A stretch of 64,000 bases of DNA, taken from assembly GCA_018696595.1 (NCBI GenBank), contig JABHQW010000008.1:64001-128000 (forward strand). Reading direction: 5' to 3'. Origin of the DNA: Candidatus Woesearchaeota archaeon (GTDB taxonomy: Archaea; Nanobdellota; Nanobdellia; Woesearchaeales; GW2011-AR9). Below, piece after piece: positions 11,063-30,836 of the stretch (position 1 is its first letter; every line of letters begins with the position of its first letter). Position numbers and translations under genes: made by a program. The notes beneath the pieces were generated by a model that made no database searches, was not told the DNA's origin, and saw nothing but the letters and a program-made list of their open reading frames with translations.

Positions 11063-12198
11063 AAATACTATTTATTTGTGAGAATTACTTGCCCCATTAT
11101 GGGGGTGCCGAAGTTGTTTTCAAGAATCTTGCAGAATCTTATGCCATTAAAGGTCATAACGTTGCATTACTAACTCACCAAATTAAAGGAACAAAAAAAA
11201 GAGAAGAAATGGGGGCAGTTAAGGTTATCAGAGTCCCCTCATTTAACTCCAGATATATTTTTAGTTTTTCTGCTATTCTTAAGGCAATTAAATTAGCTAA
11301 ACATTGTGATGTAATCCAAACAACTACTTTTAATGGAACTTTTCCTGCTTGGATAGCTGCCAAAGTTTGCCGCAAACCAATAGTAATCACTGTACATGAA
11401 GTTTGGGTTAATAAATGGAGAAAAGTGACTAGTTTTCCCCGCTGGAAATGCTTCATTCATGATTTATTAGAAAGAGCAATTTATTTGTTACCATATGACC
11501 AATATGTTTGTGTTTCCAATGCAACAAAAAAAGACTTGCTTAAATTAGGAATAAATGAAAATAAAGTAAAAACAATCTATAATGGATTAGATTATAATTT
11601 CTGGAACAAAAATAATTTTAGTGACAAAAAGGTTCAAGAGATTAAGGAGCAACTCAATCTTAAAAAGAAAGTAGTTTATTACGCTAGTGGAAGACCCGGA
11701 GAATCAAAAGGTTTTGAAACTTTCATTAAAGCAATCCCTTTAATAAAGAGTAAAGTTCCAAATTCTTTTTTCTTATTAGCTTTGGGGTCTGTTGAAAAAT
11801 ACAAAAGAAAACATTTAGAATTACTGGCCTTAATAAAAAAGTTAAGAATTGAAAAAGAGATAAAAGTAATGAATTCTGTGCCATATGAAGAATTAGGACA
11901 TTATCTCAAAGCAGCCAATTATGTGGTGGTTCCTTCATTGGCGGAAGGATTTGGTTACACTACTGTTGAAGCAGTAGCAATGGAGAAACCAGTAATTGTT
12001 AGTAATGCGGGCTCACTTCCCGAAGTGGTTAGTGGTAAACACCTCATCTTTAAAAAAGGAAGCCCCATTGATTTAGCAGAGAAAGCGATACAAACAAATC
12101 AAGGCCAATACGAAAAAAGTAAAATGAAAAAGTTTTTATGGCAAAATAGTGTTCAAAGCTATTTGAGAGTTTATGAAAGATTGCTTAACCGTTTCTGA
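11059..12198 (+). CDS. GT4 family glycosyltransferase
   Basis: YGGAEVV N-terminal motif and EGFGYTTVE (EX7E). Confidence 0.85.
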   Translation: MKILFICENYLPHYGGAEVVFKNLAESYAIKGHNVALLTHQIKGTKKREEMGAVKVIRVPSFNSRYIFSFSAILKAIKLAKHCDVIQTTTFNGTFPAWIAAKVCRKPIVITVHEVWVNKWRKVTSFPRWKCFIHDLLERAIYLLPYDQYVCVSNATKKDLLKLGINENKVKTIYNGLDYNFWNKNNFSDKKVQEIKEQLNLKKKVVYYASGRPGESKGFETFIKAIPLIKSKVPNSFFLLALGSVEKYKRKHLELLALIKKLRIEKEIKVMNSVPYEELGHYLKAANYVVVPSLAEGFGYTTVEAVAMEKPVIVSNAGSLPEVVSGKHLIFKKGSPIDLAEKAIQTNQGQYEKSKMKKFLWQNSVQSYLRVYERLLNRF

Positions 12199-14226: not shown

Positions 14227-15876
14227 TTATTTTTTATCTCTTTTTGCTATTATGGCATTAATTCTTTTATAATCTTCAAATGTATGAATTTCAGTCCAAC
14301 CTTTATTGACTTCTAAACAATCAACTTTGTGTCCTTGCTCAATTAACTTTTGAATAGCATAAGTAAAATCTTTGTTTTTCATTTCTTCATAATTCTCAGA
14401 ATAGATTTGTTTTAGTAACTCGGTACCTTGTCCCGAAAACATTGCCATGCCAATAAATTCAAAATTTGCTTCATCCGGATCTAAATGTGAACCAATTTTA
14501 ACAATTTCATTATGGTCATCAAAAGTTAATGATCTTTCACCTAGATAGGGGTCTCTTTTACCAACAACAAGATCTAACTTTTTATTATACCGATTAGCAT
14601 TTAATTTATATGAAGAATCAATCACTAAAGTAATATCTCCTTCTTTCTTAATTAATCTTTCAACAATGTCCTTATCAAAAAGAAGGTCAGAATAAAGCAT
14701 TAGAATTTTTCCGTTCATTTTATCTTTAGCAGTCATGATTGAATGTAACGCTTTGGTGTTTTCATATTCAGAGTTATGATACTTATTAATTGCAGGAAGA
14801 TTAATTTTTTCCCCACAATAGCCAGTAACTACACTAATATCATTAATCTTAAGAGAATTAAGAATCTCAATATTTCTTTGAATAATTGGTTTGCCATTAA
14901 TATCAAGTAAACAAAGAGGGGTATCTTTTAGGTATACATCATTGAGCTTAGGATCTATTGGCTTACCAGCGGCAGGAATAATAACTTTAATCTCTTCAAA
15001 GTCTCCTTTAACATATTTCGTTTCATGGTCCTTCATTTCAAAAGTACCTTGAAGTTCAAACAATTCTTTTACTGGAATCAATTTTTCTGAGATTGTATGA
15101 ATCCCTCCTTGTTCTTTTATTTCCTTAAGTGTTTCTTTAATAGAAGTTACTGCAGATCTAATCACATGATTAGCATAAATAACCATCTTAACTTTAGGGT
15201 GATTTTTTATTTTATCCTCAGTCAAAGTGTAATAATTTGTAGGAACAATGACGATTGGAATATCTTCTTTCCACTCTTCAATAAACCTAATAACTTCTGC
15301 AGGATCACTTTGTTTAGAATGAATCATAATTGCATCTGCCCCTGCCTCAACATAAGCTTTGGCTCTTTTTTTTGCTTCTTCATGACCCCATCCAGCAATG
15401 AGGGCTTCAACACGAGCAATAACCATGAAATCATCATCTCGTTGAGCATTTTTAGCAGCCATAATCTTTCCAGAGAACTCAGCAATAGATGCTAATTCTT
15501 GTTTCCCTCCAACTAAAAGGCTATTCTGTTTTGGAAACTTTTTATCTTCCATAATTACTCCTGCAATTCCGGCTGCCTCAAATTTTTGAACCATCCGAAT
15601 TACGTTAATAGAATTACCATAACCTTGATCAACATCAACAACAACGGGAATCGTAACTGCATCATTCATAGAAACTGCCGCATCTAAATAGTCTGTCATA
15701 GTGAGAATATTAGCATCTGGAACAGCATGTGACGCCGAAACTTCTAAAGAAGAAGCCCAAACTCCTTCAAAGCCTGCTTTCTCGATTAATTTCGCAGTCA
15801 AACCATTATGAGCCCCAACTAAACGAAAGAACCCAGGAAGATTAAATAATTCACGCAATTTTTTTGATTTTTCCAT
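14227..15876 (-). CDS. pepM: Phosphoenolpyruvate mutase fused to a C-terminal sugar-phosphate nucleotidyltransferase-like domain
   Basis: GAHNGLTAK, DVDQGYG, the diagnostic EDKKFPKQNS (EDKx5NS) and ARVEALIAG motifs. C-terminal VIIPAAG...P.CLLDINGKPII...YSDLLFD is an NTP-transferase fold. Confidence 0.92.
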   Translation of the reverse strand: MEKSKKLRELFNLPGFFRLVGAHNGLTAKLIEKAGFEGVWASSLEVSASHAVPDANILTMTDYLDAAVSMNDAVTIPVVVDVDQGYGNSINVIRMVQKFEAAGIAGVIMEDKKFPKQNSLLVGGKQELASIAEFSGKIMAAKNAQRDDDFMVIARVEALIAGWGHEEAKKRAKAYVEAGADAIMIHSKQSDPAEVIRFIEEWKEDIPIVIVPTNYYTLTEDKIKNHPKVKMVIYANHVIRSAVTSIKETLKEIKEQGGIHTISEKLIPVKELFELQGTFEMKDHETKYVKGDFEEIKVIIPAAGKPIDPKLNDVYLKDTPLCLLDINGKPIIQRNIEILNSLKINDISVVTGYCGEKINLPAINKYHNSEYENTKALHSIMTAKDKMNGKILMLYSDLLFDKDIVERLIKKEGDITLVIDSSYKLNANRYNKKLDLVVGKRDPYLGERSLTFDDHNEIVKIGSHLDPDEANFEFIGMAMFSGQGTELLKQIYSENYEEMKNKDFTYAIQKLIEQGHKVDCLEVNKGWTEIHTFEDYKRINAIIAKRDKK

Positions 15877-17103: not shown

Positions 17104-17186
17104 TGCACAAGAATTATAAATGAATTATAACCATTAACTACCTATTAATTTAAAAAAATTAACGAGAATGGATTAATTAATTGAAA

Positions 17187-18308
17187 ATGATAAACCCAGC
17201 ACAATTTTACGAACTTTTACAAACTAAAGAACTAACTATGTTTACCGGGGTGCCTGATTCTACCTTAAAACAATTATGTGCTTACATCACAGATCATGTG
17301 CCTCCAGAAAGAAATATTATAACTGCAAATGAAGGTAATGCAATTGGTTTAGCAAGTGGGTATTACTTAAGCACAAACAACCCTGCCATCGTTTACATGC
17401 AAAATTCGGGATTGGGAAATTGTGTTAATCCCTTAACTTCTTTAACTGATGAAGATGTTTATTCTATTCCAATGTTATTGATTATCGGCTGGAGAGGCGA
17501 ACCAGGAAAAAAAGATGAACCGCAACATGTAAGAATGGGACAAATAACTCTGGAGATGTTGGATGTTCTAAAAATACCTTATTCTATTATTCCTGATACA
17601 ATTGAAGAAACAGAAATAGAGGTTAGTAAAGCTGTTGTTCATATGAACAATCATAAAACACCTTATGCTCTTGTTGTAAGAAAAGGAACTTTCACGGAAC
17701 ATAAATTACAAAATACAAAAACAACAAATTATCCCCTTAATCGCGAACAAGCAATAAGGACCCTTGTTCCGTTATTAGAAGAAGATGCTATTATAGTTTC
17801 AACCACTGGAAAAACATCAAGAGAATTATTTGAATTTAGAGAAGAACTTCAACAAGGACACGAAAGAGATTTCTTAACTGTTGGTTCAATGGGCCATTCA
17901 TCTTCAATTACTTTAGGAGTCGCCTTACAAAAACCAAAAAAGAAAGTATACTGTTTTGATGGTGATGGTGCGCTAATAATGCACATGGGTGCCTTATCAA
18001 CAATTGGCCAGTTACAACCAAAGAATCTGTGTCATATTGTATTGAATAATTTTGCACATGATTCGGTCGGGGGACAACCAACTGCTGCAGACAATATTGA
18101 TATTCCGCAAGTTGCTCAAGCTAACGGATATAAGAAAGTGTTCTCGGCTCAAAGCGAAGAAGAGATTAGAGCTAAAATAAAAGAAATCCAACAACTAGAA
18201 GGGCCAACATTATTAGAAATTAAAGTAAACAAAGGGGCAAGAAAAGAATTAGGAAGACCCACTACAACACCAAAAGAGAACAAATCTGAATTGATGAAGT
18301 ATTTATAA
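17187..18308 (+). CDS. ppd: Phosphonopyruvate decarboxylase (ThDP-dependent)
   Basis: FTGVPDSTLK, ANEGNAIG, YMQNSGLGN, GWRGEPG..DEPQH and GDGALIMHMG...NN motifs. ATG 17187 preferred over TTG 17181. Confidence 0.92.
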   Translation: MINPAQFYELLQTKELTMFTGVPDSTLKQLCAYITDHVPPERNIITANEGNAIGLASGYYLSTNNPAIVYMQNSGLGNCVNPLTSLTDEDVYSIPMLLIIGWRGEPGKKDEPQHVRMGQITLEMLDVLKIPYSIIPDTIEETEIEVSKAVVHMNNHKTPYALVVRKGTFTEHKLQNTKTTNYPLNREQAIRTLVPLLEEDAIIVSTTGKTSRELFEFREELQQGHERDFLTVGSMGHSSSITLGVALQKPKKKVYCFDGDGALIMHMGALSTIGQLQPKNLCHIVLNNFAHDSVGGQPTAADNIDIPQVAQANGYKKVFSAQSEEEIRAKIKEIQQLEGPTLLEIKVNKGARKELGRPTTTPKENKSELMKYL

Positions 18309-18390: not shown

Positions 18391-19452
18391 TTAATTATCT
18401 TCCCAATCCTTTTTTGGAATTCTCCAGTCTTTTCCATAAACAAATTCGAGATGTTTTTCAGGATTAAAAGGGGCATGATACTCTTTCCCATAAAAATCTA
18501 TTTTTCCTAATTGACTATAATGTTCTCTTAAAAACTTCCACTCAATGATTCTACAATCTTTTAGTGAAACTTTTTCCCATAATAATTGAATTAATTTCCC
18601 TTTATAAGGAATAAAAGTAAATATAAATATCACTACATTAAAAAAACCTTTTAAAAACCAAGAAGGGATTCTTGAATCTTGTAGCTCTCCACCATGCCTT
18701 CTTATTAAAGTAATAAATGTATTTATTATCATCCTTCGCTTTTTTATGCCATCTCTAGCTGCCAACAACAACCAACCCAATAACGCAGTAATTTTTGTTT
18801 TTTTCTTTAAACTTTTTGTTTGAAAAAAAACTAAATAGTCCTTTTTTTTCCTAAGAATATGAATATTAATATGTAATGAACCTTTCTTTCTAAATGTAAT
18901 CATTCCACGATCAGCAAACCAACATACTTCAAACCCCTGATCTGATAGCTTATTAAGAGCATCTAGTAATGTATTTATATTAATTTCTTCCCTCACCATA
19001 CTAGTATCAATATCACAATCCCAAGATAATATTTTCTTATCCCTAACTGCTCCAAGAAGGGTACCACAATCTAATCTCCAAATTAAGTTATGTTCTTCAA
19101 ATACCTCTTTTATTTCTTCTAACGCTTTCACTGTTCCTTTTTCATGTGGGTTTTTTTCTTTTGAAGAAATTGTGGGCGTGTTCTTTCTAGAAATAACTTT
19201 TTCATTTAACTCCATTTGTATTTTTTGATTAATACTTTTATCTTTTATATTTCCAATTTTAGTTAAGTGTTTCCTAAAAGGACCGAGATTTGTCCTAAAT
19301 ATTCTACAATTTAACCAAAGGTATCCTTTCTCTTTTGTAATAGTATACACATTTTCTCTGAAAGGGTCTAATGGTGGTGTAAACCGAGTTGTTTTTACTA
19401 TATCGCCAACTTTAAAAATTGTTTTTGTCATTTTCTTTATTATTCTCCACAT
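18391..19452 (-). CDS. LicD-family nucleotidyltransferase-fold phospho-headgroup transferase with N-terminal extension
   Basis: LDCGTLLGAVRD...WDCDID and C-terminal P...E.HLEFVYG.DW.IP LicD motifs. The true start may be ATG 19431. Confidence 0.8.
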   Translation of the reverse strand: MWRIIKKMTKTIFKVGDIVKTTRFTPPLDPFRENVYTITKEKGYLWLNCRIFRTNLGPFRKHLTKIGNIKDKSINQKIQMELNEKVISRKNTPTISSKEKNPHEKGTVKALEEIKEVFEEHNLIWRLDCGTLLGAVRDKKILSWDCDIDTSMVREEININTLLDALNKLSDQGFEVCWFADRGMITFRKKGSLHINIHILRKKKDYLVFFQTKSLKKKTKITALLGWLLLAARDGIKKRRMIINTFITLIRRHGGELQDSRIPSWFLKGFFNVVIFIFTFIPYKGKLIQLLWEKVSLKDCRIIEWKFLREHYSQLGKIDFYGKEYHAPFNPEKHLEFVYGKDWRIPKKDWEDN

Positions 19453-19502: not shown

Positions 19503-21032
19503 TTATGTTTGTTTTATCCCCACAAAACCTATTCTTTCACCATACATCGCTTTTGCCCGAATTGGATCTCTTTTAAGTAACAAATGATTAAGATCAAAGT
19601 TTTGTTTTTCTACCCAACATTCAAACTCTCCTGCACTTTTAAAACCGTCAACAGTTATATGGGAGTTTCTGAAAGTACCACTTTTTTTTACTTCTCCATC
19701 CCACCATAAATTTTCTTTTGTAACTTGTCGATAAAGCTCTGTTCCAGGAAGGGGATTCACAATGGCAACAGAATAACTATCTGCCCCACAACTAGCAGCA
19801 AACTTAATTGTTTCTTCCCTTTCTTCTCTTGTTTCGCCTGGAAAACCAACCATCCAAAAAGTATGAGTATACAACCCGGCATCAATAGCAGTTCTAATTG
19901 TTTGAGGAATAAGTTCTAAATCCAACCTTTTATTGGCCTGATCTAAAGTTTTTTGCACACCACTTTCACATGCTAAAGTGACTTGATAGCAACCCGAATC
20001 TGCCATTTTTTCAAATAATTCCTGATGCTTACCCTGGTGATAATCTACTCTGATTCCATTCGGCGGGCACCAAGGAATATTCAAGGGTTTCATTAGATCA
20101 CATAATTCATTTAATTTTGAAAGGTCAGATGTTAGAGTATCGTCTTCAAACTGAACTTCTTGAATACCATGATTTTCAATAGCGTCTTTTATTTCTGCAA
20201 CAATTTCTTGAGGGCTTCTCCACCTAACTTTTCTTCCCCAAGTAACGGGAGTAGTACAATAAGTACAACGTTCCGGACATCCCCTAGAAGCCATAACATT
20301 CAATACCCTTTTTCTTTCAGTATCTGCATTATGAAATAAACCAACATTAAAGTACCCTTCCATATTCATAAGATGCCTAGCGGGAGAAGGTAAATCTTGG
20401 AGATTAAGTGTTTCTCCAGATAAAGGATTAATTACTATTTTACCTGCTTCGGATGAAGAATTTTCTCTATGAACTAAACCGGGAATCAAACTATAATCAC
20501 CACCAGTTAATAAACAATCAATTAAATGTGCAAATCTCAGTTCACTTTCTCCAACCATTGCAAAATCAATATTTTGATTATCCATGAAAGCCAATTCTTT
20601 TTCTAGATTTGATTCTTGGTTTCTAGGATCATTGGCATAAAGATAATCTGACACACTATTAGTGATATAGTTTCCACCTACAATAACTGGGAGATCTCTT
20701 TTAACCTCTTTTGTAATCCGAGCTAAGGCATGAGAGCCTTGAACAAGATTAGAAAAGAGTACAGAAATCCCAACAATGTCTGGATTAATTTCTGAGATAT
20801 ATTTAGCAATATCAGTATCTGATTCTCCCACAATAACTATTCCCTTCTCCCCGGAGGATTCAGAATGGTGATAGCCTTCTAATGCAGTATCACGAACATA
20901 AACGTCGTGGCCTTCTTTTTCAAGAACTGCCGCCAAATAACCCAAACCCAAAGGAGGTTGTATTCGGTTAACCCCTCCTTCAATGCCCCTGATATTTGGA
21001 GAGAATAACAAAATCCTACTTTTATTTACCAT
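19503..21032 (-). CDS. B12-binding-domain radical SAM protein
   Basis: N-terminal PPLGLGYLAA...VGIS...VGG B12-binding domain, SRGCPERCTYC (CxxxCxxC), FEDD and ESG motifs. Confidence 0.85.
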   Translation of the reverse strand: MVNKSRILLFSPNIRGIEGGVNRIQPPLGLGYLAAVLEKEGHDVYVRDTALEGYHHSESSGEKGIVIVGESDTDIAKYISEINPDIVGISVLFSNLVQGSHALARITKEVKRDLPVIVGGNYITNSVSDYLYANDPRNQESNLEKELAFMDNQNIDFAMVGESELRFAHLIDCLLTGGDYSLIPGLVHRENSSSEAGKIVINPLSGETLNLQDLPSPARHLMNMEGYFNVGLFHNADTERKRVLNVMASRGCPERCTYCTTPVTWGRKVRWRSPQEIVAEIKDAIENHGIQEVQFEDDTLTSDLSKLNELCDLMKPLNIPWCPPNGIRVDYHQGKHQELFEKMADSGCYQVTLACESGVQKTLDQANKRLDLELIPQTIRTAIDAGLYTHTFWMVGFPGETREEREETIKFAASCGADSYSVAIVNPLPGTELYRQVTKENLWWDGEVKKSGTFRNSHITVDGFKSAGEFECWVEKQNFDLNHLLLKRDPIRAKAMYGERIGFVGIKQT

Positions 21033-21197
21033 AAGTAATCTTCCTCTAAATCAATATCTAATAATTGTATTTTTTCGCATCAAGGGTCTTTTATAAAAGT
21101 TATGAATATGTAATGCAGTCAAAATCCTTTTATAAAGAACCCTAATGAATTAAATGTGGCCAAATCCACATTAGAATTATAAAAATGAATCGAAGAA

Positions 21198-21213
21198 CCA
21201 TAGAATATATAAA
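21198..21213 (+). promoter_or_regulatory. BRE/TATA promoter of the four-domain phosphonate gene; identical 16-mer to 16010-16025
   Basis: CCATAGAATATATAAA ending about 25 nt before ATG 21238. Confidence 0.55.
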
Positions 21214-21237
21214 TACTTTAATTTATTTAGTTGTTAA

Positions 21238-24200
21238 ATGTCATTAGCAAAACAGAGGGAATATTTTGGAATTGGAAAAATAGATAAGTTAAAAGAAATA
21301 TTAGCATTAGAACGAGCAAAAAAAGTATTTTTAGTAACCACAAAAAGATCATTCTCATCTTCTAGTGCTAAAGAAAGAATTGCCCCCCAATTAAAAGATT
21401 ACCAGGTCACTATTTTTAACGAATTCTCCCAAAACCCAAAACTAGAAGATATTAAAAGAGGAATAAAGATATTTAAAGAAAGTAATTCCGATTTAATTAT
21501 TGCTATTGGTGGAGGGAGTGTAATTGATATGGCAAAATCAATTAATGTCTTATCTGCCCAAACTTTAGCACCTGAAATATACATCATTGAAAAAGTTCCG
21601 TTTGAAAAGAAAGGTTGCCCATTAGTTGCAATACCAACCACATCAGGAACAGGAAGTGAAGCGACACATTTCGCGGTTTTGTATATTAACAAATCCAAAT
21701 ATTCGTTAGCTCACGAAGAATATATTCTTCCAAATTATGCCATTATCGATCCCGAATTGACATTTAGTTTACCTAAAGCCATTACTGCTACAACTGGTAT
21801 TGATGTTTTAAGCCAAAGCATAGAATCATATTGGTCGGTAAACTCAACTGAAGAAGCAAAGGCTTACGCCCAAGAAGCAATAAAGTTAGTTTTAAAAGAT
21901 CTAAAAACTGCGGTTAATTACCCTTGCAAAGAAGCCAGAGTAGCAATGGCCAAAGCGGCCAATTTATCTGGAAAAGCAATTAACATTGCAAAATCCACGG
22001 CCCCACACGCGATATCATACCCTTTTACTTCATACTTTAATATTCCTCACGGCCATGCAACAGGATTAACCCTTGGCCCAATACTAGTTTTTAATGCCAA
22101 TATTAATGAAACTAATTGTACAGACCCAAGAGGGGCAGAATATGTTAGATTAACTATTAATAAAATAATTTCTTTTTTTGGGTCTACTTGTGCCGCTGAT
22201 ACTTGTAAAAAAATTCAATATTTAATGCGAGATATTGGACTTGAAACAAACATTAAAAGATTAGGGATTGATTCTGAAGAAAAAGTAAATTTAATAATTG
22301 AAAAAGGGTTCAACCCCGATCGAATTAAAAATAACCCCAAAAGAATAGAGCCAGAACAGTTAAGAAAAATTTTAAATGAAATTAGCCAAGAAACAGAAAT
22401 TAAACCAGAAAAAATGGAAACAGTTTATATTGGCATGGTTGCTGATAGCATCCACCACGGCCACATAAATATTATCAGTGAAGCAAGAAAATTGGGAGAT
22501 GTAATTGTGGGATTAGTTACTGATGATGCGGCCCAAAGCTATAAAAGAAGACCAATCTTAAGCTTTAGTGATAGAGCAAGAATTATTAAAAATATCAAAG
22601 GAGTAACAAAAATTGTTCCCCAAAACACATTGGATTATGTCCCAAATATAGAGAAATATAAACCATCAATAATCATGCATGGGGATGATTGGAAAAAAGG
22701 ATCCCAAAGAATTATTAGAGAAAGAGCATTAAATGCAGTTGAAAAGTATGGGGGGAGAATTATAGACCTCCCTTATACTAAAGGCATTTCAACTACAGAA
22801 TTTATAGAAAAAGTTAAATCTTGTTCATTAAATAAAAAAAACACAACCCAAGCAATAATTCTGGCAGCAGGGATGGGTACAAGATTAAGACCACTTACTG
22901 AAGAGACACCAAAATGTTTAATTAAAGTGAACAATAAAACACTATTAGAATATTCACTTGATTGTCTTAAAGAAAATGGAATCCAAGAGGTAATTATTGT
23001 TATTGGTTATCGCGGAGAATTAATTAAACAAAAAATAGGTAATGATTATCACGGCTTAAAAGTAGCATACATTGAAAATTTACGTTTTTCCGAGACTGGA
23101 AGTATGTATTCTTTGTCACTTGCTAAAAAAGAGATTAAAAATGACATCCTGGTTTTAGAATCTGATCTGTTATATGAATCGTCTGCTATTAATACAATAT
23201 TAAATTCAAATCATAGAAATACTATGGTCATCTCTAAATTACTTCATTCTGGAGATGATGTTTACATTTGTACAAATGAAAAAGAAGAAATTATTAATCT
23301 TGGGAAAGAAATATCAGAAGAAGAGAAAAAAAGAGCTAAAGGAGCAATGATCGGAATTTCAAAATATTCTGGTGAATTTCTTGCAGAACTTTTTAAGAAA
23401 GCAGAAGAAGATTATGAAAAGGGGGAAGTCAATTACCATTATGAAGAGTGTGTATTTGCCACCAGTCATGAGAATAACCCGGTTAAAGCTATCTTTTGTC
23501 CTGAACTTCATTGGATTGAAATTGACAATGAAAATGATTTAAAGAAAGCAACAGAAGTAACATACCCCAAGATCAGAAATTTAGAGAATAATAAGCAAAA
23601 AAGTTCAAGTATAAAAAGAAATATCCTTTTAAATCCTGGACCAGCTACTACTACTGACACCGTAAAATATGCACAAATTGTTCCCGACATTTGTCCAAGA
23701 GAAAAAGAATTTGGGGATGTAATGAAATACATTAATAATAATTTAATTGAAATTGCTGGGGGAAATACGGAGGAAGATGTCTGCGTATTATTTGGTGGCT
23801 CTGGAACGGCGGCCATGGATGCTACAATTAATTCTGTTGTACCACCTGATAAAAAAATCTTAGTGATTAATAATGGAGCATATGGGGAAAGAATTGCTAA
23901 GATTGCTCGAGCGTATAGTCTTGGTTGTATTGAACTAAAGTTTGAATGGGATGCTCTACCAGATCTAAAAATAATTGAGGACCAACTAAACGAAAACCCT
24001 GAAATTTCTTGCGTTGCTATGATTCATCATGAAACAACAACGGGACTATTAAATCAGGTTAAAGAAATTGGAGAATTAGTTAAAAATCACAATAAAGTGT
24101 TCATAGTTGACACAATATCTAGTTTCGCAGGGATCCCAATGAATATTAAAGAATTTAATATTGATTTTATGATGTCTACTTCAAACAAGTGTATTCAAGG

Positions 24201-24732
24201 AATGGCAGGGGTTAGTTTTGTTATTTGTAGTAAGAAACAACTTGAAAGAATTAAAGAATACCCACGCCGATCTTTTTATTTAAGCTTATATGACCAATAC
24301 GAATATTTCATTAAAAATTACCAGATGAGGTTTACCCCCCCAGTACAAACATTATATGCTCTTAAAAAAGCAATTGCAGAATTTTTAGAGGAAGGATATG
24401 AAAACCGAGTTGCAAGATATACTCAGAGTTGGAAAGTTCTAAGAGCAGGAGTTCAAGAATTAGGATTTAAGATATTAACTCAACCTGAAAATGAGTCCAA
24501 CCTTTTAATTACTTTACTTAATCCAGAACACCCTAATTTTAATTTTAATATTCTTCATGACAAATTATTTGAAAAAGGATTTACTATTTATCCTGGAAAA
24601 GTGGGAAAAGTTAATTCATTTCGGTTATCTAATATGGGTGCCATTGATGAAAAGGATATTAGCGAATTCTTAGTAACATTTGAAGGTGTATTAAATGAAA
24701 TGGGAACAATTGGACAGCAAAAACCAACATAA
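21238..24732 (+). CDS. Four-domain phosphonate enzyme: Fe-dependent alcohol dehydrogenase (phosphonoacetaldehyde reductase-like) + HxGH cytidylyltransferase + LicC/PntC-like nucleotidyltransferase + 2-aminoethylphosphonate transaminase
   Basis: aa 1-385: GGGSVID, PTTSGTGSE, HAISY..PHG. aa ~393-530: DSIHHGH, HGDDW, PYTKGIST. aa ~535-780: ILAAGMGTRL...PKCL...ESDLLY...EID. aa ~795-1160: LLNPGP, HHETTTG, STSNKCIQG (PLP lysine), RFTPP. Confidence 0.9.
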   Translation: MSLAKQREYFGIGKIDKLKEILALERAKKVFLVTTKRSFSSSSAKERIAPQLKDYQVTIFNEFSQNPKLEDIKRGIKIFKESNSDLIIAIGGGSVIDMAKSINVLSAQTLAPEIYIIEKVPFEKKGCPLVAIPTTSGTGSEATHFAVLYINKSKYSLAHEEYILPNYAIIDPELTFSLPKAITATTGIDVLSQSIESYWSVNSTEEAKAYAQEAIKLVLKDLKTAVNYPCKEARVAMAKAANLSGKAINIAKSTAPHAISYPFTSYFNIPHGHATGLTLGPILVFNANINETNCTDPRGAEYVRLTINKIISFFGSTCAADTCKKIQYLMRDIGLETNIKRLGIDSEEKVNLIIEKGFNPDRIKNNPKRIEPEQLRKILNEISQETEIKPEKMETVYIGMVADSIHHGHINIISEARKLGDVIVGLVTDDAAQSYKRRPILSFSDRARIIKNIKGVTKIVPQNTLDYVPNIEKYKPSIIMHGDDWKKGSQRIIRERALNAVEKYGGRIIDLPYTKGISTTEFIEKVKSCSLNKKNTTQAIILAAGMGTRLRPLTEETPKCLIKVNNKTLLEYSLDCLKENGIQEVIIVIGYRGELIKQKIGNDYHGLKVAYIENLRFSETGSMYSLSLAKKEIKNDILVLESDLLYESSAINTILNSNHRNTMVISKLLHSGDDVYICTNEKEEIINLGKEISEEEKKRAKGAMIGISKYSGEFLAELFKKAEEDYEKGEVNYHYEECVFATSHENNPVKAIFCPELHWIEIDNENDLKKATEVTYPKIRNLENNKQKSSSIKRNILLNPGPATTTDTVKYAQIVPDICPREKEFGDVMKYINNNLIEIAGGNTEEDVCVLFGGSGTAAMDATINSVVPPDKKILVINNGAYGERIAKIARAYSLGCIELKFEWDALPDLKIIEDQLNENPEISCVAMIHHETTTGLLNQVKEIGELVKNHNKVFIVDTISSFAGIPMNIKEFNIDFMMSTSNKCIQGMAGVSFVICSKKQLERIKEYPRRSFYLSLYDQYEYFIKNYQMRFTPPVQTLYALKKAIAEFLEEGYENRVARYTQSWKVLRAGVQELGFKILTQPENESNLLITLLNPEHPNFNFNILHDKLFEKGFTIYPGKVGKVNSFRLSNMGAIDEKDISEFLVTFEGVLNEMGTIGQQKPT

Positions 24733-24756: not shown

Positions 24757-25503
24757 ATGATTACTAGAAATCAACAGAAAGAAAAATATGAAACTGATTT
24801 AAGATACCATTCAGATTCGGACAACTTAAATCAAACGTTTGATAACCGCTATTCATTACGTAATAATTGGGGATTATATTTTGAATTAATAAAATTTAAA
24901 GAGATGGTTAAGCTCTTAAATAAAAGTAAAGTTAGGTTAAAGAATAAAAAAATCTTAGATTTAGGTTGTCACCGTGGCTTTACTTCTAACCTTTTAGCAC
25001 AATTAAAAGGATCTTCTGAAAACATTTATGGGGCAGATTTTATCAATTCTTTTGTTGAGCAAGCCCAAGAAATTAATCCTGGTGTTAAATTCTTTCAACA
25101 TGATGTTTATAATGAGCTACCTTTTGAGAACTCTTATTTTGATTTAGTTACATTAATTTACTTGTTTAATGCCCTTCCCTCCCAAGACCAACAAGAAGTT
25201 GTTAAGAATATTTCCAAAAAAATAAAAGTAGGAGGTCATATCTTATTCTTTGACTTGTTTGAATCCAGAATGTCACGAGTAACACAAAGATTAGCTCACC
25301 TTAACAAGAGATATACTCCTTTGCCACATTTTAATGATAAAATTATTAAAAAATTGTTCCCGGACTTTAAGATAATCCAATCTAAAAAAATAATTAATTT
25401 GTTAACTTATCGAACAATTGGGTTTTCGTATGGTTTAGCAGAATTTTTAGATAAAATGTTACCATGCGAGTATTATATCACATTATTAAGAAAAATAAAA
25501 TAA
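24757..25503 (+). CDS. Class I SAM-dependent methyltransferase
   Basis: ILDLGCHRG motif I, YGAD, LPFENSYFD and GGHILFFD. Confidence 0.8.
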   Translation: MITRNQQKEKYETDLRYHSDSDNLNQTFDNRYSLRNNWGLYFELIKFKEMVKLLNKSKVRLKNKKILDLGCHRGFTSNLLAQLKGSSENIYGADFINSFVEQAQEINPGVKFFQHDVYNELPFENSYFDLVTLIYLFNALPSQDQQEVVKNISKKIKVGGHILFFDLFESRMSRVTQRLAHLNKRYTPLPHFNDKIIKKLFPDFKIIQSKKIINLLTYRTIGFSYGLAEFLDKMLPCEYYITLLRKIK

Positions 25504-25504
25504 A

Positions 25505-26155
25505 ATGGGCGAAAAAAGAATAAAAGAAAATGTGGAATTTTGGGATTGGGTATTCAGATTTGTATCTAAACCAGTCACACACTTTTTTGTTAAGTTCACT
25601 AAGATAACCCCTAACCAAATCACCATATTAAGTTTTATTTTAGGCTTATTAGCCGCGGGACTAATTTTAATGGGAGATTATAATTACTTAGTTGTTGCAG
25701 GCGTCTTAGTATTAATTTTCATGGTCTTAGATAATGTTGACGGGGAGATTGCTAGAATAACTAAGAAAACAAGTAAGTTAGGCCATTGGTTAGATGGAGT
25801 TGTGGGTTTTATTATAAATGAAGCATTAATTTTAGCCATGGCATTAAGTATTGGTAGCCCATTATCTCTATCCGTTGGATTATTAACAATGATTGCTTTT
25901 CCAATGCAATATTTATTAATATTCTTTTACAAAGCAGAGATTGTTAAAGAGAATGCCCCAATTACAATTGGATCTGGAAGCCTAATCAATAAAATAAAGT
26001 ATTTATATGGTTCAACCTTCTTTCAATTTACAGTTGCGATAGGTTGCTTTTTCAATAAGCTACTATGGGTTTTAATCTTCTTTGCAGTCATCGGAAACTT
26101 ATTCTGGATGGGGACATTGTTTGTCCAATATATCAACTTAAAACGAAAGTTTTAA
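25505..26155 (+). CDS. CDP-alcohol phosphotransferase family membrane protein (fourth Asp replaced by Gly)
   Basis: ITPNQIT and LDNVDGEIAR-x8-GHWLDGVVG. Confidence 0.8.
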   Translation: MGEKRIKENVEFWDWVFRFVSKPVTHFFVKFTKITPNQITILSFILGLLAAGLILMGDYNYLVVAGVLVLIFMVLDNVDGEIARITKKTSKLGHWLDGVVGFIINEALILAMALSIGSPLSLSVGLLTMIAFPMQYLLIFFYKAEIVKENAPITIGSGSLINKIKYLYGSTFFQFTVAIGCFFNKLLWVLIFFAVIGNLFWMGTLFVQYINLKRKF

Positions 26156-26180: not shown

Positions 26181-27170
26181 ATGGTAAACAATTTGTTGAG
26201 TCATTATAAAGTCTCCCCAAAATTAGAAGTGAAATTAACAGCAAGTTTTCCTTTATCTCGGAGTACAGGAATTCAACAAGCTTATAATTCTCAAGAACCA
26301 GATTGGGACTTATTATTTACGCATTGGGGTAAAGAGATTATATATATTAATCCTAATATCCCCCAATTACAGTGGAGAGAGATATGCTTAGCAACCCATT
26401 GGAATCAATTTGAAGAAGCAGTTAAAAAAAATGATAAATTAGTACTAGATGGGAGAAAAATCGATGGTTTTTCAATTCAAGCTCAACGTAAAGGGGCTTT
26501 AAAAGATTTAAGTTTTTTATCTACTGCAAATTATTGTTTTACTCTTACCGATGATGACCAACATATTTTAATGGGAGTTAGGGGAGGAAGTGATAATGTA
26601 GGACAAGCAGTAACAATGCCATTGGGGGTTGTTTCTTATCCTTCAGAACCTGACCCTAATAATTTAGATCCAATTACGGCTTCAGTTTACTCCGAAGCAA
26701 ATGAAGAAGGGGGCATTTTACCAAATGAATATTCTTCATTAAATTGTATTGGAACCTTGCGACAAGAGCAATGTTCTACACCAGTAAATAATCTTATTTG
26801 GATTGGAAGATTAAAGATTACAGGTGAAGAAATTATAGAGAGACACAAAGTAGCCATTGAATTATATAATAAATTTGGAAATGATTCTGAGAACATATTA
26901 AAGGCACGAATGGAGTTGAGAAAAAGATTTTTATTTAATCCAAGATTTCCAAAAGATGCTTGGGAAAATTCAAGATTAAATTTATTTTCTAATGATCCCG
27001 AGAAAATGGTTGCAGATCTCAGTTATTTAATTGACCAAGGAAAAGAAATTAAACATGGATTATATGGTGCTTTAGCCTTATATATTTTAAACCAACATGG
27101 AGATAAATATTATAGTCAATTAATGAATATACCACAATTTAAAGAAAAGATTCATGATCAAAAATTATAG
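26181..27170 (+). CDS. Hypothetical protein with a possible degenerate NUDIX-like motif
   Basis: Long open frame in an apparent operon. HILMGVRGG...MPLGVV...VYSEANEEGGI resembles a NUDIX box. Confidence 0.4.
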   Translation: MVNNLLSHYKVSPKLEVKLTASFPLSRSTGIQQAYNSQEPDWDLLFTHWGKEIIYINPNIPQLQWREICLATHWNQFEEAVKKNDKLVLDGRKIDGFSIQAQRKGALKDLSFLSTANYCFTLTDDDQHILMGVRGGSDNVGQAVTMPLGVVSYPSEPDPNNLDPITASVYSEANEEGGILPNEYSSLNCIGTLRQEQCSTPVNNLIWIGRLKITGEEIIERHKVAIELYNKFGNDSENILKARMELRKRFLFNPRFPKDAWENSRLNLFSNDPEKMVADLSYLIDQGKEIKHGLYGALALYILNQHGDKYYSQLMNIPQFKEKIHDQKL

Positions 27171-27257: not shown

Positions 27258-27962
27258 ATGAAAGCATTAATTACTGCGGCCGGAATGGGTACGAGACTGG
27301 GTAATATTACTAAAGACACAAACAAGTGTATCTTAAATGTCGGAAACAAACCATTACTTCTCCATTCAGTCGAGATTCTCAAGAATGTAGGAATTGATGA
27401 CATATATGTAATTATTGGCCATCACGGAGAGAAAATTAAACAACTTCTTGGAGATAAAGTTAATTATATCTATAATCCTGATTATGCCACTACTAGTATT
27501 CTAGGTTCTATTGTTCTTGCTAAAGAACATTTATTCCAGTCAGAATTTGTTTTTCTAACCGGAGATTCTTTGCTCCATCCCGAACTCATCAAGGGCTTAT
27601 TAGAACCAAGTCAAGATGTTCTTGTTTCTATTGAGCTTAAAAAATGTAATGAAGAAGATATGAAAGTTGTTTTAGAGAACCATAATATTAAAGAAATAAG
27701 TAAAACAATATCTTTGGATCAGGCCCAGGGAGAATATACTAGCCTTACTAGATTCCCAAAAGAGTCTTCCACTGTTTTTTTTAATGAAGTTGAAAAAGCA
27801 ATAAACAATCAGAATTGTAAAACTTATGTTGCTGACATCCTTTTAAATTTACAAAATTTAGGGTTTAATCTTAAACCAATATATACCAATAAACCAAGAA
27901 TTGAAATTGATTTCTTAGAAGACTTAGAAAAAGCCCAAGCATTGTACAAACAATATTTTTGA
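27258..27962 (+). CDS. LicC/PntC-like phospho(no)-headgroup cytidylyltransferase (NTP transferase)
   Basis: LITAAGMGTRL, NKCIL, YNPDY, TGDS, DMKV and EIDFLEDL motifs. Confidence 0.8.
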   Translation: MKALITAAGMGTRLGNITKDTNKCILNVGNKPLLLHSVEILKNVGIDDIYVIIGHHGEKIKQLLGDKVNYIYNPDYATTSILGSIVLAKEHLFQSEFVFLTGDSLLHPELIKGLLEPSQDVLVSIELKKCNEEDMKVVLENHNIKEISKTISLDQAQGEYTSLTRFPKESSTVFFNEVEKAINNQNCKTYVADILLNLQNLGFNLKPIYTNKPRIEIDFLEDLEKAQALYKQYF

Positions 27963-28929: not shown

Positions 28930-29691
28930 ATGAAAACCAAATATCCATTTAAAACAATAACAAAAACTGAAGAGCAACTTCATTCTTGGACTTATGTATT
29001 TCTACTTAAGTATCCAACAATCTTATTAACCTGGCTATTTGCAAATTTTACTAACTTCTCTCCAAACTTAGTTTCTTTCCTAGGGCTGATTCCTTCTTTT
29101 ATTAGTGCTTATTTTTATGTTAATGGGAACTTACTATTTGGTGCTCTTTTTTATCTCTTGGCTTGGCTTCTTGATGGAGTTGATGGAAGATTAGCAAGAG
29201 TCAAAAGCCTAGGGTCAAAGTACGGGGCATTTTATGACAATTATGTTGGCCAAATTGGTTTTATTATAATGATCATGGGATTTTTTTATGGTATAGCTAG
29301 AATAAAACAAAATTCTTTATGGTTGTTGTTGGGCATTCTAGTTTACTTTCTGGTTACTTTCCGCAGCTTGATTGCTTTAAAAGTTAAAACCTTGATGGGA
29401 AATGAATATCGTGTCAACTTAGATGAAGTAAATGTTGAAGAAGCAAGTATTAAAGAAACAAAAGGATTATGGGGATTAGCTGTAAGATTACAAAATAAAC
29501 TGAACCAAAAAGGTTTAGTTGAACCATTTAACCTAATTGATATGATTGTATTGATTTTTATTATTGGCCCAATTGCGGAATTAATTTTATCTGGTTCTCT
29601 AATATATGTGATAATATTTGCATTGATTATGATTATAATAAAAGAAATCATCTGGTTTCTCTATTATAGAAAGATTTTAAAAGATAGGTGA
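28930..29691 (+). CDS. CDP-alcohol phosphotransferase family membrane protein (fourth Asp replaced by Gly)
   Basis: FSPNLVS and LDGVDGRLAR-x8-GAFYDNYVG. Confidence 0.8.
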   Translation: MKTKYPFKTITKTEEQLHSWTYVFLLKYPTILLTWLFANFTNFSPNLVSFLGLIPSFISAYFYVNGNLLFGALFYLLAWLLDGVDGRLARVKSLGSKYGAFYDNYVGQIGFIIMIMGFFYGIARIKQNSLWLLLGILVYFLVTFRSLIALKVKTLMGNEYRVNLDEVNVEEASIKETKGLWGLAVRLQNKLNQKGLVEPFNLIDMIVLIFIIGPIAELILSGSLIYVIIFALIMIIIKEIIWFLYYRKILKDR

Positions 29692-29699
29692 AATTAAAA

Positions 29700-30836
29700 A
29701 TGAATATAATTCTTCTTACTGATGGATTCATGCGGAATAAAAAAGAATCAATATATCTTACATTAACTAGTTTAAGTAAAGAATTAATTAATCAAGGACA
29801 TCAAGTAGTAATTATTGCTAATGGAAATAATGATCTTCCCCGGATTAATATTGAAGAGAGAGTAACAATCGTTAGGCCGCCAAAAATCTTCAGTTTTTGT
29901 AGAATAATGAGGATAATTATTATTGGTCCTTTTATTAGAGTCTTACAAAAAAAACAGAAAAGAAAATACCAAATCATTAATAATTTTAGTTCTGCTCCAA
30001 TCTTAGTATTGAGAGCAGTATTTGCAAAATTGTTTTTGCCAAATATTAAAATTATTCAAAGCATAAAGTCTTATTCAAAAATGAATCTTGGAAACCATTT
30101 TTTTCATTTACTTAATTTTGCAAATTTAGTAACTATACCAACAAAAGTATTTGCAAAAAAGCTGGTTAGAAAAGGAGTAAAAGAAGAGAAAATCGAGGTC
30201 ATGAGATCCACCATTAATACCAATAAATTTTATCCAAAGAATGGAGACAAACTTAAGCAGGAATATGGCTATAACAATAAAAATGTGATTTTTTATTATG
30301 GGGCATTATGGAAAGAAAAAGGAGTGAAATATCTTGTTGAAGCCATCCCCGAAATTAAAAAGGTAGAACCACAAACAATGTTCATTTTTGCACCACGAGA
30401 AAGAAAAGAATTTTTATATCAACATAAGAAGTTACTAAATAAAATTAAAAAAATACCTGATACAACTATTTTAATTAACAAAATTAAAATTGAAGATTAT
30501 GTCAATATGGCCCAGATTTTAGTACTCCCTTATGCCAGCATTATTGGAACAGAAGGTAATCCTTCCTGCTTACTAGAAGCAATGGCTTGTAAAACTGCCG
30601 TTGTTACAAGTAATCTCCCTGAGTTGAAGGAAATTGTGCAACATGAACAAGATGTTCTTTTAGCAGAACCCGAAAATCCCGCCTCCATTGCTAAAAATGT
30701 AATCCGATTATTAAATGATAAACAGTTACAAGAAAGATTAACTGAAAATGCATATAAGAAATCAAAACAATTTGATGTAAGAATCATTGCCCAACAATAT
30801 TTAAAGTTATATCAAAATGTTTTAAACAAGAAGTAA
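29700..30836 (+). CDS. GT4 family glycosyltransferase
   Basis: YYGALWKEKG and EGNPSCLLE (EX7E). ATG 29700 follows a GGTGA ribosome-binding site. Confidence 0.8.
   Translation: MNIILLTDGFMRNKKESIYLTLTSLSKELINQGHQVVIIANGNNDLPRINIEERVTIVRPPKIFSFCRIMRIIIIGPFIRVLQKKQKRKYQIINNFSSAPILVLRAVFAKLFLPNIKIIQSIKSYSKMNLGNHFFHLLNFANLVTIPTKVFAKKLVRKGVKEEKIEVMRSTINTNKFYPKNGDKLKQEYGYNNKNVIFYYGALWKEKGVKYLVEAIPEIKKVEPQTMFIFAPRERKEFLYQHKKLLNKIKKIPDTTILINKIKIEDYVNMAQILVLPYASIIGTEGNPSCLLEAMACKTAVVTSNLPELKEIVQHEQDVLLAEPENPASIAKNVIRLLNDKQLQERLTENAYKKSKQFDVRIIAQQYLKLYQNVLNKK

Follow-up and report, generated by a model that had tools for sequence, protein, structure and literature searches.

A four-domain enzyme of a DPANN archaeon with predicted roles in both the HEP and AEP branches of phosphonate biosynthesis

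Introduction

In inventories of phosphonate gene clusters, the iron-type alcohol dehydrogenase (Fe-ADH), which leads to 2-hydroxyethylphosphonate (HEP), and the AEP transaminase (AEPT), which leads to 2-aminoethylphosphonate (AEP), are treated as competing and mutually exclusive branch points (PMC8942020). A 64,000-nucleotide stretch of DNA from a Candidatus Woesearchaeota archaeon (the window) contains a gene that places both enzymes and two unrelated cytidylyltransferase folds in one polypeptide (P0001). This raises the question of whether such a protein is real, where it came from, and whether it could direct phosphonoacetaldehyde (PnAA) into both products and activate each with its own CTP transferase.

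Domain composition of the fusion protein

The gene is a single ORF on the plus strand (21238..24732) that encodes 1164 aa plus stop, with an ATG start and no internal stops. All four domains are complete and were found by Pfam above the gathering score (Fe-ADH at residues 9-172 with ADH_Fe_C at 183-381, CTP_transf_like at 403-524, NTP_transferase/NTP_transf_3 at 539-657, and Aminotran_5 at 821-1081), which bears out the uninterrupted four-domain frame described in the initial annotation; its domain coordinates match the present ones to within a few codons. The domain limits lie at residues 1-385 (Fe-ADH), 393-529 (HxGH cytidylyltransferase, CyTase), 537-781 (PntC), and 791-1164 (AEPT), and the junction linkers are short (approximately 7-10 residues). 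Linker 1 (residues 386-392; 22393..22413, plus strand) is defined by the junction sequence and by alignment A1, in which stand-alone Fe-ADH homologues stop just upstream and CyTase homology starts just downstream; contigs of X1, X7, X8, and X9 bridge it.

Domain 1 (21238..22392, plus strand) is an iron-type (group III) alcohol dehydrogenase, matching PF00465 with 145.5 bits (cut-off 31.3; profile positions 5-168 of 168) and PF25137 with 101.2 bits (cut-off 27; positions 1-192 of 194). Alignment A1 shows no variation in the cofactor motif GGGS (91-94) or in the metal ligands D189, H257, and H271. At position 193, a metal-ligand site with His in the canonical family, P0001 has Gln; Gln is also present at the equivalent position in 6jko and in nine of the 11 other aligned phosphonate-cluster homologues. 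Against the NCBIfam model TIGR03405 (PsrA equivalog, phosphonate Fe-ADH), the domain scored 176.7 bits, far below the cut-off of 423.7; it is thus outside this equivalog, and the predicted role as a PnAA reductase making HEP (PhpC/FomC-like) comes from its context. Homologues of this domain with 47-54% identity adjoin Ppd and/or CyTase-PepM genes (L012-L016, L019, L029, L048, and L179), and approximately 20 genomes of the phylum have them.

Domain 2 (22414..22824, plus strand) is an HxGH Rossmann cytidylyltransferase of the Fom1 CyTase type, supported by PF01467 (61.7 bits, cut-off 21), by a full-length match to the solved Fom1 CyTase domain in PDB 5x3d (E 1.2e-43 over 133 residues, query 11-143 to chain 26-158 of 160), and by the motifs HHGH (406-409) and GISTT (516-520; consensus (R/Y)TxGISTT). 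With the CyTase domains of CyTase-PepM fusions it shares 47-59% identity. The predicted reaction is the conversion of HEP and CTP to CMP-HEP, although a preference for HEP cannot be read from the fold, since HxGH CyTases fused to AEPT also exist (P0092, CyTase-AEPT; P0018, AEPT-CyTase-PepM).

Domain 3 (22846..23580, plus strand) is a LicC/PntC-type GT-A nucleotidyltransferase (PF00483, 56.9 bits; PF12804, 43.4 bits) that matches the PntC domain of Tde1415 in 6pd1 with E 3.6e-26 over residues 4-243. The PntC signature GxG(T/S)Rx(4-8)PK is present as GMGTR (545-549) and PK (558-559), and R549, K559, and K690 align with R15, K25, and K153 of Tde-PntC, the importance of which has been demonstrated by mutation (PMC6697681). 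The choice of AEP over phosphocholine by PntC is steric and was defined via kinetics and pocket volume (PMC6697681). For domain 3, we infer a preference for AEP, and hence the predicted formation of CMP-AEP from AEP and CTP, from its fusion to AEPT and from its 57-59% identity to the PntC of PntC-AEPT proteins from AEP-only operons.

Domain 4 (23608..24729, plus strand) is a PLP-dependent AEP transaminase of the AepZ/PhnW type. TIGR03301 (PhnW-AepZ) spans residues 796-1147 with 430.4 bits (cut-off 360.8), NF010006 scored 354.5 bits (cut-off 296), and the match to the AEPT domain of 6pd1 reached E 1.4e-109. The PLP lysine, K984 in the motif SNKCIQG, is invariant in alignment A2 and aligned to the SNK-motif lysine of 6pd1. 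The domain is 80-82% identical to its counterparts in G303 and L011 and is predicted to convert PnAA to AEP. Against the catabolic PhnW model TIGR02326, it scored below the cut-off (340.5 bits, cut-off 400.8), which agrees with an AepZ-type role in biosynthesis and not in degradation.

Gene neighbourhood

Two genes near that of P0001 encode the upstream steps, both at equivalog level. A 549-aa PEP mutase (PepM) with a C-terminal GT-A nucleotidyltransferase (14227..15876, minus strand; PF13714, 192 bits; TIGR02320, 319.8 bits with cut-off 319.55; NTP_transf_3 at 322-411) supplies phosphonopyruvate, and a phosphonopyruvate decarboxylase (Ppd; 17181..18308, plus strand; TIGR03297, 507 bits with cut-off 312.5) supplies PnAA, the substrate shared by domains 1 and 4. 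A B12-binding radical SAM enzyme (19503..21032, minus strand; PF02310 and PF04055) is divergent from the four-domain gene and is a candidate for methylation of a CMP-phosphonate; it is 48-49% identical to radical SAM genes beside Fe-ADH in HEP-type clusters (L013 and L014) and 31-33% identical to AEPT-PntC-rSAM fusions. Downstream of it lies a gene for a LicD-family phospho-head-group transferase (18391..19452, minus strand; PF04991, 39.6 bits).

On the other side, the four-domain gene is immediately followed by co-oriented genes for a SAM methyltransferase (24757-25503, plus strand) and a CDP-alcohol phosphatidyltransferase (25505-26155, plus strand), and L021 and L022, which are independent assemblies, have the same two neighbours. 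Beyond them, also on the plus strand, lie genes for another stand-alone GT-A nucleotidyltransferase (27258-27962) and for a second CDP-alcohol phosphatidyltransferase (28930-29691).

Related clusters and mosaic origin

The two halves of P0001 have different relatives. Contiguous operons of PepM-nucleotidyltransferase, Ppd, and PntC-AEPT genes with 57-90% identity and no Fe-ADH were found in G303 and L011. Clusters of the other type, with CyTase-PepM, Fe-ADH, radical SAM, and CDP-alcohol transferase genes (approximately 33-54% identity) and no AEPT, were found in G018, G005, and others. The HEP set of CyTase-PepM, Fe-ADH, and B12 radical SAM enzyme is approximately 50% identical, and in G207 Fe-ADH is directly followed by CyTase-PepM; among relatives, Fe-ADH, CyTase, and radical SAM enzymes of this family stay together and form a functional set. 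AEP-type and HEP-type clusters occur apart in sister genera, and the P0001 gene sits at their seam. The ancestry of the protein is mosaic, and the fusion probably arose when the Fe-ADH/CyTase pair of a HEP-type cluster became attached ahead of PntC-AEPT in an AEP-type operon.

One related MAG (G416) has all four domains in the absence of a four-domain fusion (CyTase-Fe-ADH, PntC, and AEPT), indicating that the HEP and AEP branches co-occur elsewhere too. Genomes of the same genus (G001 and G002) are without the pathway, and no four-domain variants were present in the 90%-identity cluster of P0001, which suggests that the fusion is young.

Comparison with known fusions

Fusions of PntC with AEPT and of PepM with Fom1-type cytidylyltransferases had been cited as known in bacteria, and Tde1415 and Fom1 are indeed such proteins. 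Tde1415 of Treponema denticola (PDB 6PD1/6PD2; PMC6697681) is colinear with the C-terminal 630 residues of P0001, with the same PntC-AEPT order and linker position and with equivalents of R15, K25, K153, and the PLP lysine kept. However, it is a bacterial protein of an AEP-only pathway without Fe-ADH or an HxGH cytidylyltransferase, and its PntC domain is well diverged from domain 3.

The fosfomycin set of Streptomyces consists of Fom1 (CyTase-PEP mutase, PDB 5X3D), FomC (Fe-ADH), and Fom3 (B12 radical SAM) (Cho et al. 2017, as cited in PMC6697681 and PMC9088020). The likeness extends from domain 2 to its partners, one Fe-ADH and one B12 radical SAM gene, and to the logic of PnAA to HEP to CMP-HEP to methylation. 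On the other hand, the CyTase of P0001 is joined to Fe-ADH and PntC-AEPT and not to PEP mutase, which here is a separate gene fused to a GT-A nucleotidyltransferase. The genes checked included no HppE epoxidase, and the presence of glycosyltransferases, LicD, and CDP-alcohol transferases nearby suggests that the products decorate the cell surface rather than serve as an antibiotic.

Both unrelated cytidylyltransferase folds have also been found in one phosphonate-pathway polypeptide in Ppm triple fusions with PF12804 and PF01467 (42 proteins, 2.8% of Ppm; Rice et al. 2019, PMC6697681). These contain PEP mutase and neither branch-point enzyme, whereas P0001 contains both branch-point enzymes and no mutase. 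Assignment of P0001 to the Ppm-nucleotidyltransferase fusion class (Rice et al. 2019) was rejected, as it has no match to PF13714 and the mutase is encoded separately.

The impression that the architecture was undescribed held up: no second four-domain protein was found among 1.84 billion protein representatives, in the 441 genomes of the phylum, or in two junction-spanning scans of contig collections. Two- and three-domain permutations of these families are common in metagenomes. P0107 (NTase-CyTase-Fe-ADH, 751 aa), a metagenomic and uncharacterised protein, already joins three of the four domains, and P0007 (Fe-ADH-AEPT without a nucleotidyltransferase; metagenomic, 30 member sequences) already joins both branch-point enzymes. 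Other uncharacterised metagenomic fusions include CyTase-Fe-ADH (P0083, P0106, P0139, and that of G416), CyTase-AEPT (P0092), and AEPT-PntC-B12 rSAM (P0004 and P0005). The order Fe-ADH to CyTase was found in P0001 only, while every other Fe-ADH/CyTase fusion found has CyTase first. The four-domain combination is so far unique, but each of its parts and most of the fusions in pairs have been seen before. Given the Ppm triple fusions and the partial metagenomic fusions, the architecture is the largest permutation of a common shuffling theme and introduces no new principle.

Proposed function and alternatives

The host is a small marine DPANN (Nanoarchaeota-type) archaeon in which the PepM and Ppd encoded nearby would make PnAA. 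P0001 would split this intermediate into two parallel branches, each making and activating a phosphonate: the N-terminal Fe-ADH would form HEP for the adjacent Fom1-type cytidylyltransferase to convert to CMP-HEP, and the C-terminal transaminase would form AEP for the adjacent PntC to convert to CMP-AEP. The B12 radical SAM enzyme and SAM methyltransferase could then modify the CMP conjugates, which LicD and the two CDP-alcohol transferases would move onto surface glycans or lipids. It is probable that P0001 acts in this way as a tetra-functional enzyme ahead of tailoring and surface transfer. The routing, with a CTP transferase for each branch, was proposed in the initial annotation, and every computational test run agrees with it, including the resemblance of domain 2 to the Fom1 CyTase, the colinearity of domains 3-4 with Tde1415, the PepM and Ppd neighbours, and the position of domain 1 orthologues in PepM/Ppd/CyTase clusters. 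From these comparisons we infer which substrates are used, that both branches run at the same time, and what follows downstream. It is hard to see a kinetic reason for linking two enzymes that draw on the same substrate, which counts against parallel branches; the low TIGR03405 score of domain 1 and its Gln193 also speak against the proposed reading.

A different assignment of domains to substrates, or only one productive branch, appears unlikely but carries some weight. Both cytidylyltransferases might serve the AEP line (e.g., AEP and a methylated derivative), or the substrate of the GT-A domain might be no phosphonate at all but a sugar-1-phosphate or phosphocholine, for example; either way, Fe-ADH would be a mere overflow or detoxifying sink for PnAA. 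The pairing of CyTase with HEP and PntC with AEP is not secure, given the CyTase-AEPT fusions P0092 and P0018, the PF01467-Ppm fusions present in AEPT-type clusters (PMC8942020), and the GT-A nucleotidyltransferases in HEP-only clusters without AEPT (L014 and L152); moreover, the cluster has four nucleotidyltransferase domains and two methylating enzymes. However, domain 2 is 35-40% identical to AEPT-fused CyTases and much closer to Fom1 and the CyTase-PepM/CyTase-Fe-ADH proteins (47-59% identity, E 1e-43), domain 3 resembles the PntC of AEP-only operons and keeps the Tde-PntC residues, and Fe-ADH, CyTase, and the same radical SAM family go together in relatives.

Serial action, in which the dehydrogenase and transaminase interconvert HEP and AEP via enzyme-bound PnAA with the fusion channelling the aldehyde, is considered improbable. 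Its purpose would be salvage of HEP and AEP into each other or redox-linked remodelling. Consecutive steps are what fusions usually join, and the Fe-ADH-AEPT fusion P0007 is more naturally explained by a serial reaction. In P0001, however, PnAA made de novo by PepM and Ppd gives both enzymes direct access, each branch enzyme is fused beside its own activating enzyme, the two lie at opposite ends of the chain, and no phosphonate importer was noted beside the gene.

There is also little likelihood that the long transcribed ORF yields separate proteins through internal initiation or proteolysis, or that the fusion is a selectively meaningless read-through of very recent origin. Met393 lies exactly at the start position of stand-alone CyTase homologues, and a young fusion would fit such a reading. 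Against this, three in-frame junctions have short clean linkers, many samples yield an identical sequence (at least 24 contigs), PntC and AEPT are joined just as they natively are in a characterised bifunctional enzyme, and no promoter-like or Shine-Dalgarno-like element precedes Met393. Most other genes of the cluster likewise have no conspicuous element of this kind upstream.

The fusion itself is genuine and intact. The exact protein was found on at least 24 contigs of different assemblies (NCBI, JGI, ENA, and Logan data), the longest of 496 kb. Logan contigs of X8 and X9, seawater runs of independent studies not flagged as a possible source, span junctions 1 and 2 (21000-23169 and 21905-23217, respectively) and junction 3 (23143-23838 and 23290-23838) with no indels and one substitution; at the level of contigs, the stops or frameshifts that had been a concern are not seen. 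In the 97%-complete genome, the P0001 gene provides the only Fe-ADH, Fom1-type CyTase, and AEPT matches. Although the genome is a metagenome-type assembly of eight contigs and the halves are separate genes in the nearest relatives, chimeric joining or loss of stop codons is extremely improbable given the same ORF from independent assemblers and samples, junctions crossed by runs of different studies, and domain GC of 0.31-0.33 without a compositional seam (genome 0.32).

Implications

P0001, the Fe-ADH-AEPT fusions, and G416 indicate that some organisms keep both branches, in the case of P0001 in a single chain. The known chemistry of the individual steps is unchanged by these findings. P0001 can be read as a Rosetta-stone fusion that ties together four activities and two cluster types, and it offers a construct with internal controls for finding out which of the two cytidylyltransferase folds acts on which phosphonate. 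Near-identical DNA of this organism occurs in seawater metagenomes of approximately 15 studies, and HEP-type esters are described in PMC9381506 as a recognised component of marine dissolved organic phosphorus; together, these suggest DPANN archaea as a further, so far unlisted, candidate source of such esters.

A more far-reaching and tentative reading is that P0001 is a bifurcating PnAA machine that fixes the stoichiometry of two activated head groups, yielding two distinct phosphonates from one locus for glycans and lipids. A Fom3-like methylated hydroxyalkylphosphonate might be put on glycans by LicD, and a possibly N-methylated aminoethylphosphonate on scavenged lipids by the CDP-alcohol transferases. 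If this is true, P0001 would be a natural side-by-side system in which the HxGH and GT-A folds partition HEP and AEP, and a genome-reduced DPANN cell would display two chemically distinct phosphonates from a single locus.

Domain structure

The gene at window 21238-24732 (plus strand) is a single ORF of 1164 codons with an ATG start and zero internal stops, in which four non-overlapping sets of Pfam domains, each above its gathering score, could be identified: Fe-ADH with ADH_Fe_C (residues 9-381), CTP_transf_like (403-524), NTP_transferase/NTP_transf_3 (539-657) and Aminotran_5 (821-1081). Moreover, residues 796-1147 matched TIGR03301 (PhnW-AepZ) of NCBIfam with 430.4 bits (cut-off 360.8). 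The uninterrupted four-domain ORF proposed in the initial annotation is thus confirmed, and its domain coordinates were right to within a few codons. The domains are separated by linkers of 7-10 residues, and junction 1, the border between the Fe-ADH and the HxGH cytidylyltransferase (CyTase), is both the exact end point of stand-alone Fe-ADH homologues and the exact start of CyTase homology.

The identities of the domains were based on sequence matches to solved structures. Domain 1 is a group III ADH of a clade present in phosphonate clusters; its GGGS (91-94), D189, H257 and H271 are invariant across twelve phosphonate-cluster homologues, and Gln193 at its second canonical metal-ligand position is common to most of these homologues and 6jko. 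It scores below the cut-off of the NCBIfam phosphonate Fe-ADH equivalog (176.7 vs 423.7 bits), and its role as phosphonoacetaldehyde reductase therefore rests on context. Domain 2, which carries an HxGH motif (HHGH, 406-409) and a GISTT motif (516-520), belongs to the family of Fom1, the CyTase-PEP mutase of the fosfomycin pathway. Its best solved relative (E 1.2e-43, covering residues 26-158 of the 160-residue chain) is 5x3d, deposited under the name phosphoenolpyruvate phosphomutase, which we take to be the cytidylyltransferase domain of Fom1. The C-terminal half (domains 3 and 4, residues 530-1164) is colinear with 6pd1, the Treponema denticola enzyme Tde1415 (E 3.6e-26 for PntC and 1.4e-109 for the AEP transaminase, AEPT), and belongs to this PntC-AEPT family. 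R549, K559 and K690 of domain 3 align with R15, K25 and K153 of Tde-PntC, an enzyme crippled by mutation of these residues (PMC6697681), and the PLP lysine of domain 4 is K984. Tde1415 is dimeric, and dimers are the usual form of the AEPT and Fe-ADH families.

Genomic context

The genome (1.19 Mb in 8 contigs, 32% GC, 97% complete) contains archaeal SSU and LSU rRNA, and the same domains match named relatives from Nanoarchaeota, Nanoarchaeia or Woesearchaeota MAGs. Within this genome, the Fe-ADH, Fom1-type CyTase and AEPT regions of the query matched the four-domain gene and nothing else. The genes around it include a PEP mutase (PepM) fused to a GT-A nucleotidyltransferase (NTase; 14227-15876, minus), a GT4 glycosyltransferase, a phosphonopyruvate decarboxylase (Ppd; 17181-18308; TIGR03297, 507 bits), and LicD and a B12 radical SAM (rSAM) enzyme, which are transcribed divergently from it. 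Downstream, a SAM methyltransferase is followed by a first CDP-alcohol transferase, the gene of a 329-aa protein, a further NTase and then a second CDP-alcohol transferase. The 329-aa protein (26181-27170, plus) falls into no Pfam or NCBIfam family; a homologue with 36.5% identity adjoins the CyTase-PepM gene in the 2-hydroxyethylphosphonate (HEP)-type cluster of genome G018 (locus L013, 11867-12937), and the protein may be a conserved component, of unknown function, of such clusters.

The flanks consist of sugar-nucleotide and glycosyltransferase genes, with a 673-aa double epimerase/dehydratase fusion (12171-14192, minus) and a GT4 glycosyltransferase (29688-30836, plus). For these two genes and for 30871-32175, the matches in the same-genus genomes G001 and G002 are only 31-47% identical, implying that the whole glycosylation region is variable, and the phosphonate block lies within this hypervariable surface-glycan region. 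At the edge of the block, a 434-aa protein (30871-32175, minus) combines in one ORF an NTase-like PF14907 N-terminus (25.6 bits, under the cut-off of that family) with a thymidylate-kinase domain.

Proposed function

The best-supported reading, which we regard as moderately probable, is that the protein serves two parallel branches, each making and activating its own product. The N-terminal half would convert phosphonoacetaldehyde (PnAA) to HEP and then to CMP-HEP, and the C-terminal half would convert PnAA to 2-aminoethylphosphonate (AEP) and then to CMP-AEP. Tailoring and transfer would follow, via the neighbouring rSAM enzyme, methyltransferase, LicD and CDP-alcohol transferases. The rSAM enzyme (19503-21032, minus) is 48-49% identical to the Fe-ADH-adjoining rSAM enzymes of the HEP-only clusters L013 and L014, but only 31-33% to the corresponding region of AEPT-PntC-rSAM fusions, and its identity to the rSAM-containing fusion P0010 is 23%; at least two rSAM lineages therefore serve phosphonate clusters. 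Its closer similarity to the HEP-cluster enzymes fits a Fom3-like methylation of CMP-HEP. Either CMP conjugate could be its substrate, because AEP-only clusters clearly make use of related enzymes as well.

A less likely alternative is that the domains map to substrates in a different way, or that only one branch is productive. It is improbable that HEP and AEP are serially interconverted via bound PnAA. Equally doubtful is that separate products arise by internal starts, or that the fusion is a recent and selectively neutral read-through; against internal starts, no recognisable start signal was present at Met393, and an obvious Shine-Dalgarno sequence is also absent from most other genes of the cluster.

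Integrity and distribution of the fusion

The exact 1164-residue protein was found in NCBI, JGI, ENA and Logan data, and near-identical DNA occurs in the seawater metagenomes of about 15 studies. Logan contigs from X8 and X9, sequencing runs of different studies of which neither was flagged as a possible source, cross junctions 1 and 2 (CyTase/PntC) at 21000-23169 and 21905-23217, and junction 3 (PntC/AEPT) at 23143-23838 and 23290-23838, respectively. Zero indels and one substitution were observed in this contig-level check, in which rare variants are still possible, so the stops or frameshifts raised in the initial annotation as a potential objection did not appear at any of the three junctions. 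The GC content is uniform across the domains (0.31-0.33; genome 0.32). An assembly artefact is very improbable and was rejected, given that the identical protein is called, with the same neighbours, on at least 24 contigs, which reach 496 kb in length, and that the junction-crossing contigs of different studies are free of indels. Among the listed runs that contain window 22000-23900, none was an RNA run.

The occurrence of the identical protein on at least 24 contigs, together with the lack of any match to the phosphonate pathway in G001 (84% complete) and G002 (81% complete), indicates a population of low diversity and wide distribution, in which the locus is species-specific. The 90%-identity cluster of the protein contains no variant, and the amino-acid sequence is identical across many seawater samples.

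Uniqueness of the architecture

When 5.8 billion clusters were searched by word index, no second four-domain protein appeared among those of 640-2037 aa, the best match being a 643-aa PntC-AEPT with 68% identity. An exhaustive HMMER search over 1.84 billion representatives likewise found none; its top match was a 617-aa PntC-AEPT with 677 bits, a score that any four-domain relative should have exceeded by a wide margin. The 90%-identity cluster of the query is represented by a 135-aa fragment, so that neither large protein search returned the 1164-aa protein itself and long fusions can stay hidden in representative-based searches; direct genome and contig scans were added to offset this. A second four-domain protein was absent from all 441 genomes searched in the phylum. 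With a query that covers both junction 1 and junction 2, 185,579 species genomes and JGI metagenome contigs yielded CyTase-PepM, CyTase on its own and a single CyTase-Fe-ADH, and nothing else. Among the junction-spanning tblastn matches, L029/L131 (query 36-265) and several that extended to query 259-274 at first resembled same-order fusions; by ORF-level BLAST they were ordinary CyTase-PepM genes, adjoined by rSAM, Ppd and Fe-ADH genes. The initial annotation was aware of no description of this architecture, and no second case emerged from the cluster, representative, 441-genome, species-genome or JGI contig searches. Nor did full-text literature searches, which covered CMP-AEP, HEP and Fom3 as well as the biosynthesis of phosphonates in DPANN, Woesearchaeota and Nanoarchaeota, bring up a paper that describes it.

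Origin and related fusions

In sister genera, AEP-type and HEP-type clusters occur apart from each other. The AEP type, found in G303 (L017) and metagenome contig L011, is a contiguous operon of PepM-NTase, Ppd and PntC-AEPT without Fe-ADH or CyTase, and its identity to the window genes is 85-87% for PepM, 78-90% for Ppd, 57-59% for PntC and 80-82% for AEPT. The HEP type, found in G018 (L013), G005 (L014) and others, comprises CyTase-PepM, Fe-ADH, B12 rSAM and CDP-alcohol transferase without AEPT, with identities of 47-52% for CyTase, 49-54% for Fe-ADH, 48-49% for rSAM and 33-35% for CDP-alcohol transferase. Genome G207 carries Ppd, Fe-ADH and CyTase-PepM back to back in this order, an arrangement that could be a route to the Fe-ADH-CyTase fusion. 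The separate clusters and the G207 gene order therefore place the four-domain gene at the seam of the two types, where a gene of the AEP operon received an HEP module at its 5' end.

Co-occurrence of the four activities without their fusion is known elsewhere, as the Nanoarchaeota MAG G416 has CyTase-Fe-ADH on one contig and adjacent PntC (58%) and AEPT (72%) on another. In G416 (L183-L186, L082, L087), a second stand-alone HxGH CyTase also lies upstream of CyTase-PepM, followed by Ppd, PntC and AEPT. The latter two abut in different frames (17511/17512), representing either two overlapping genes or a PntC-AEPT with a frameshift.

Shuffling of these phosphonate domains is rife. Fusions include CyTase-Fe-ADH (P0083, P0106, P0139), CyTase-AEPT (P0092), AEPT-CyTase-PepM (P0018), CyTase-PepM-Ppd (P0047) and many cases of Ppd-Fe-ADH. 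The 751-aa P0107 combines GT-A NTase, HxGH CyTase and Fe-ADH, and the 695-aa P0007 (30 member sequences) joins Fe-ADH to AEPT, both 'competing' branch-point enzymes, without an NTase; both proteins appear to be undescribed so far. Rice et al. (PMC6697681) have already reported fusions of PEP mutase (Ppm) that carry both NTase folds, but the four-domain protein is not one of them. Three-domain versions, and two-domain versions with both branch enzymes, already exist; what is new is that one chain unites the two PnAA branch-point enzymes with the two cytidylyltransferase folds, and that Fe-ADH precedes CyTase.

Metagenomic proteins also include AEPT-PntC-B12 rSAM fusions (P0004 and P0005, 1115 and 1103 aa) and the 1059-aa rSAM-AEPT-SAM methyltransferase P0010 from Woesearchaeota. 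These fusions imply that an AEP-type (CMP-)phosphonate undergoes radical methylation, an uncharacterised chemistry. The value of the four-domain protein lies in its Rosetta-stone link between the HEP and AEP modules and in the opportunity to examine the specificity of the cytidylyltransferases.
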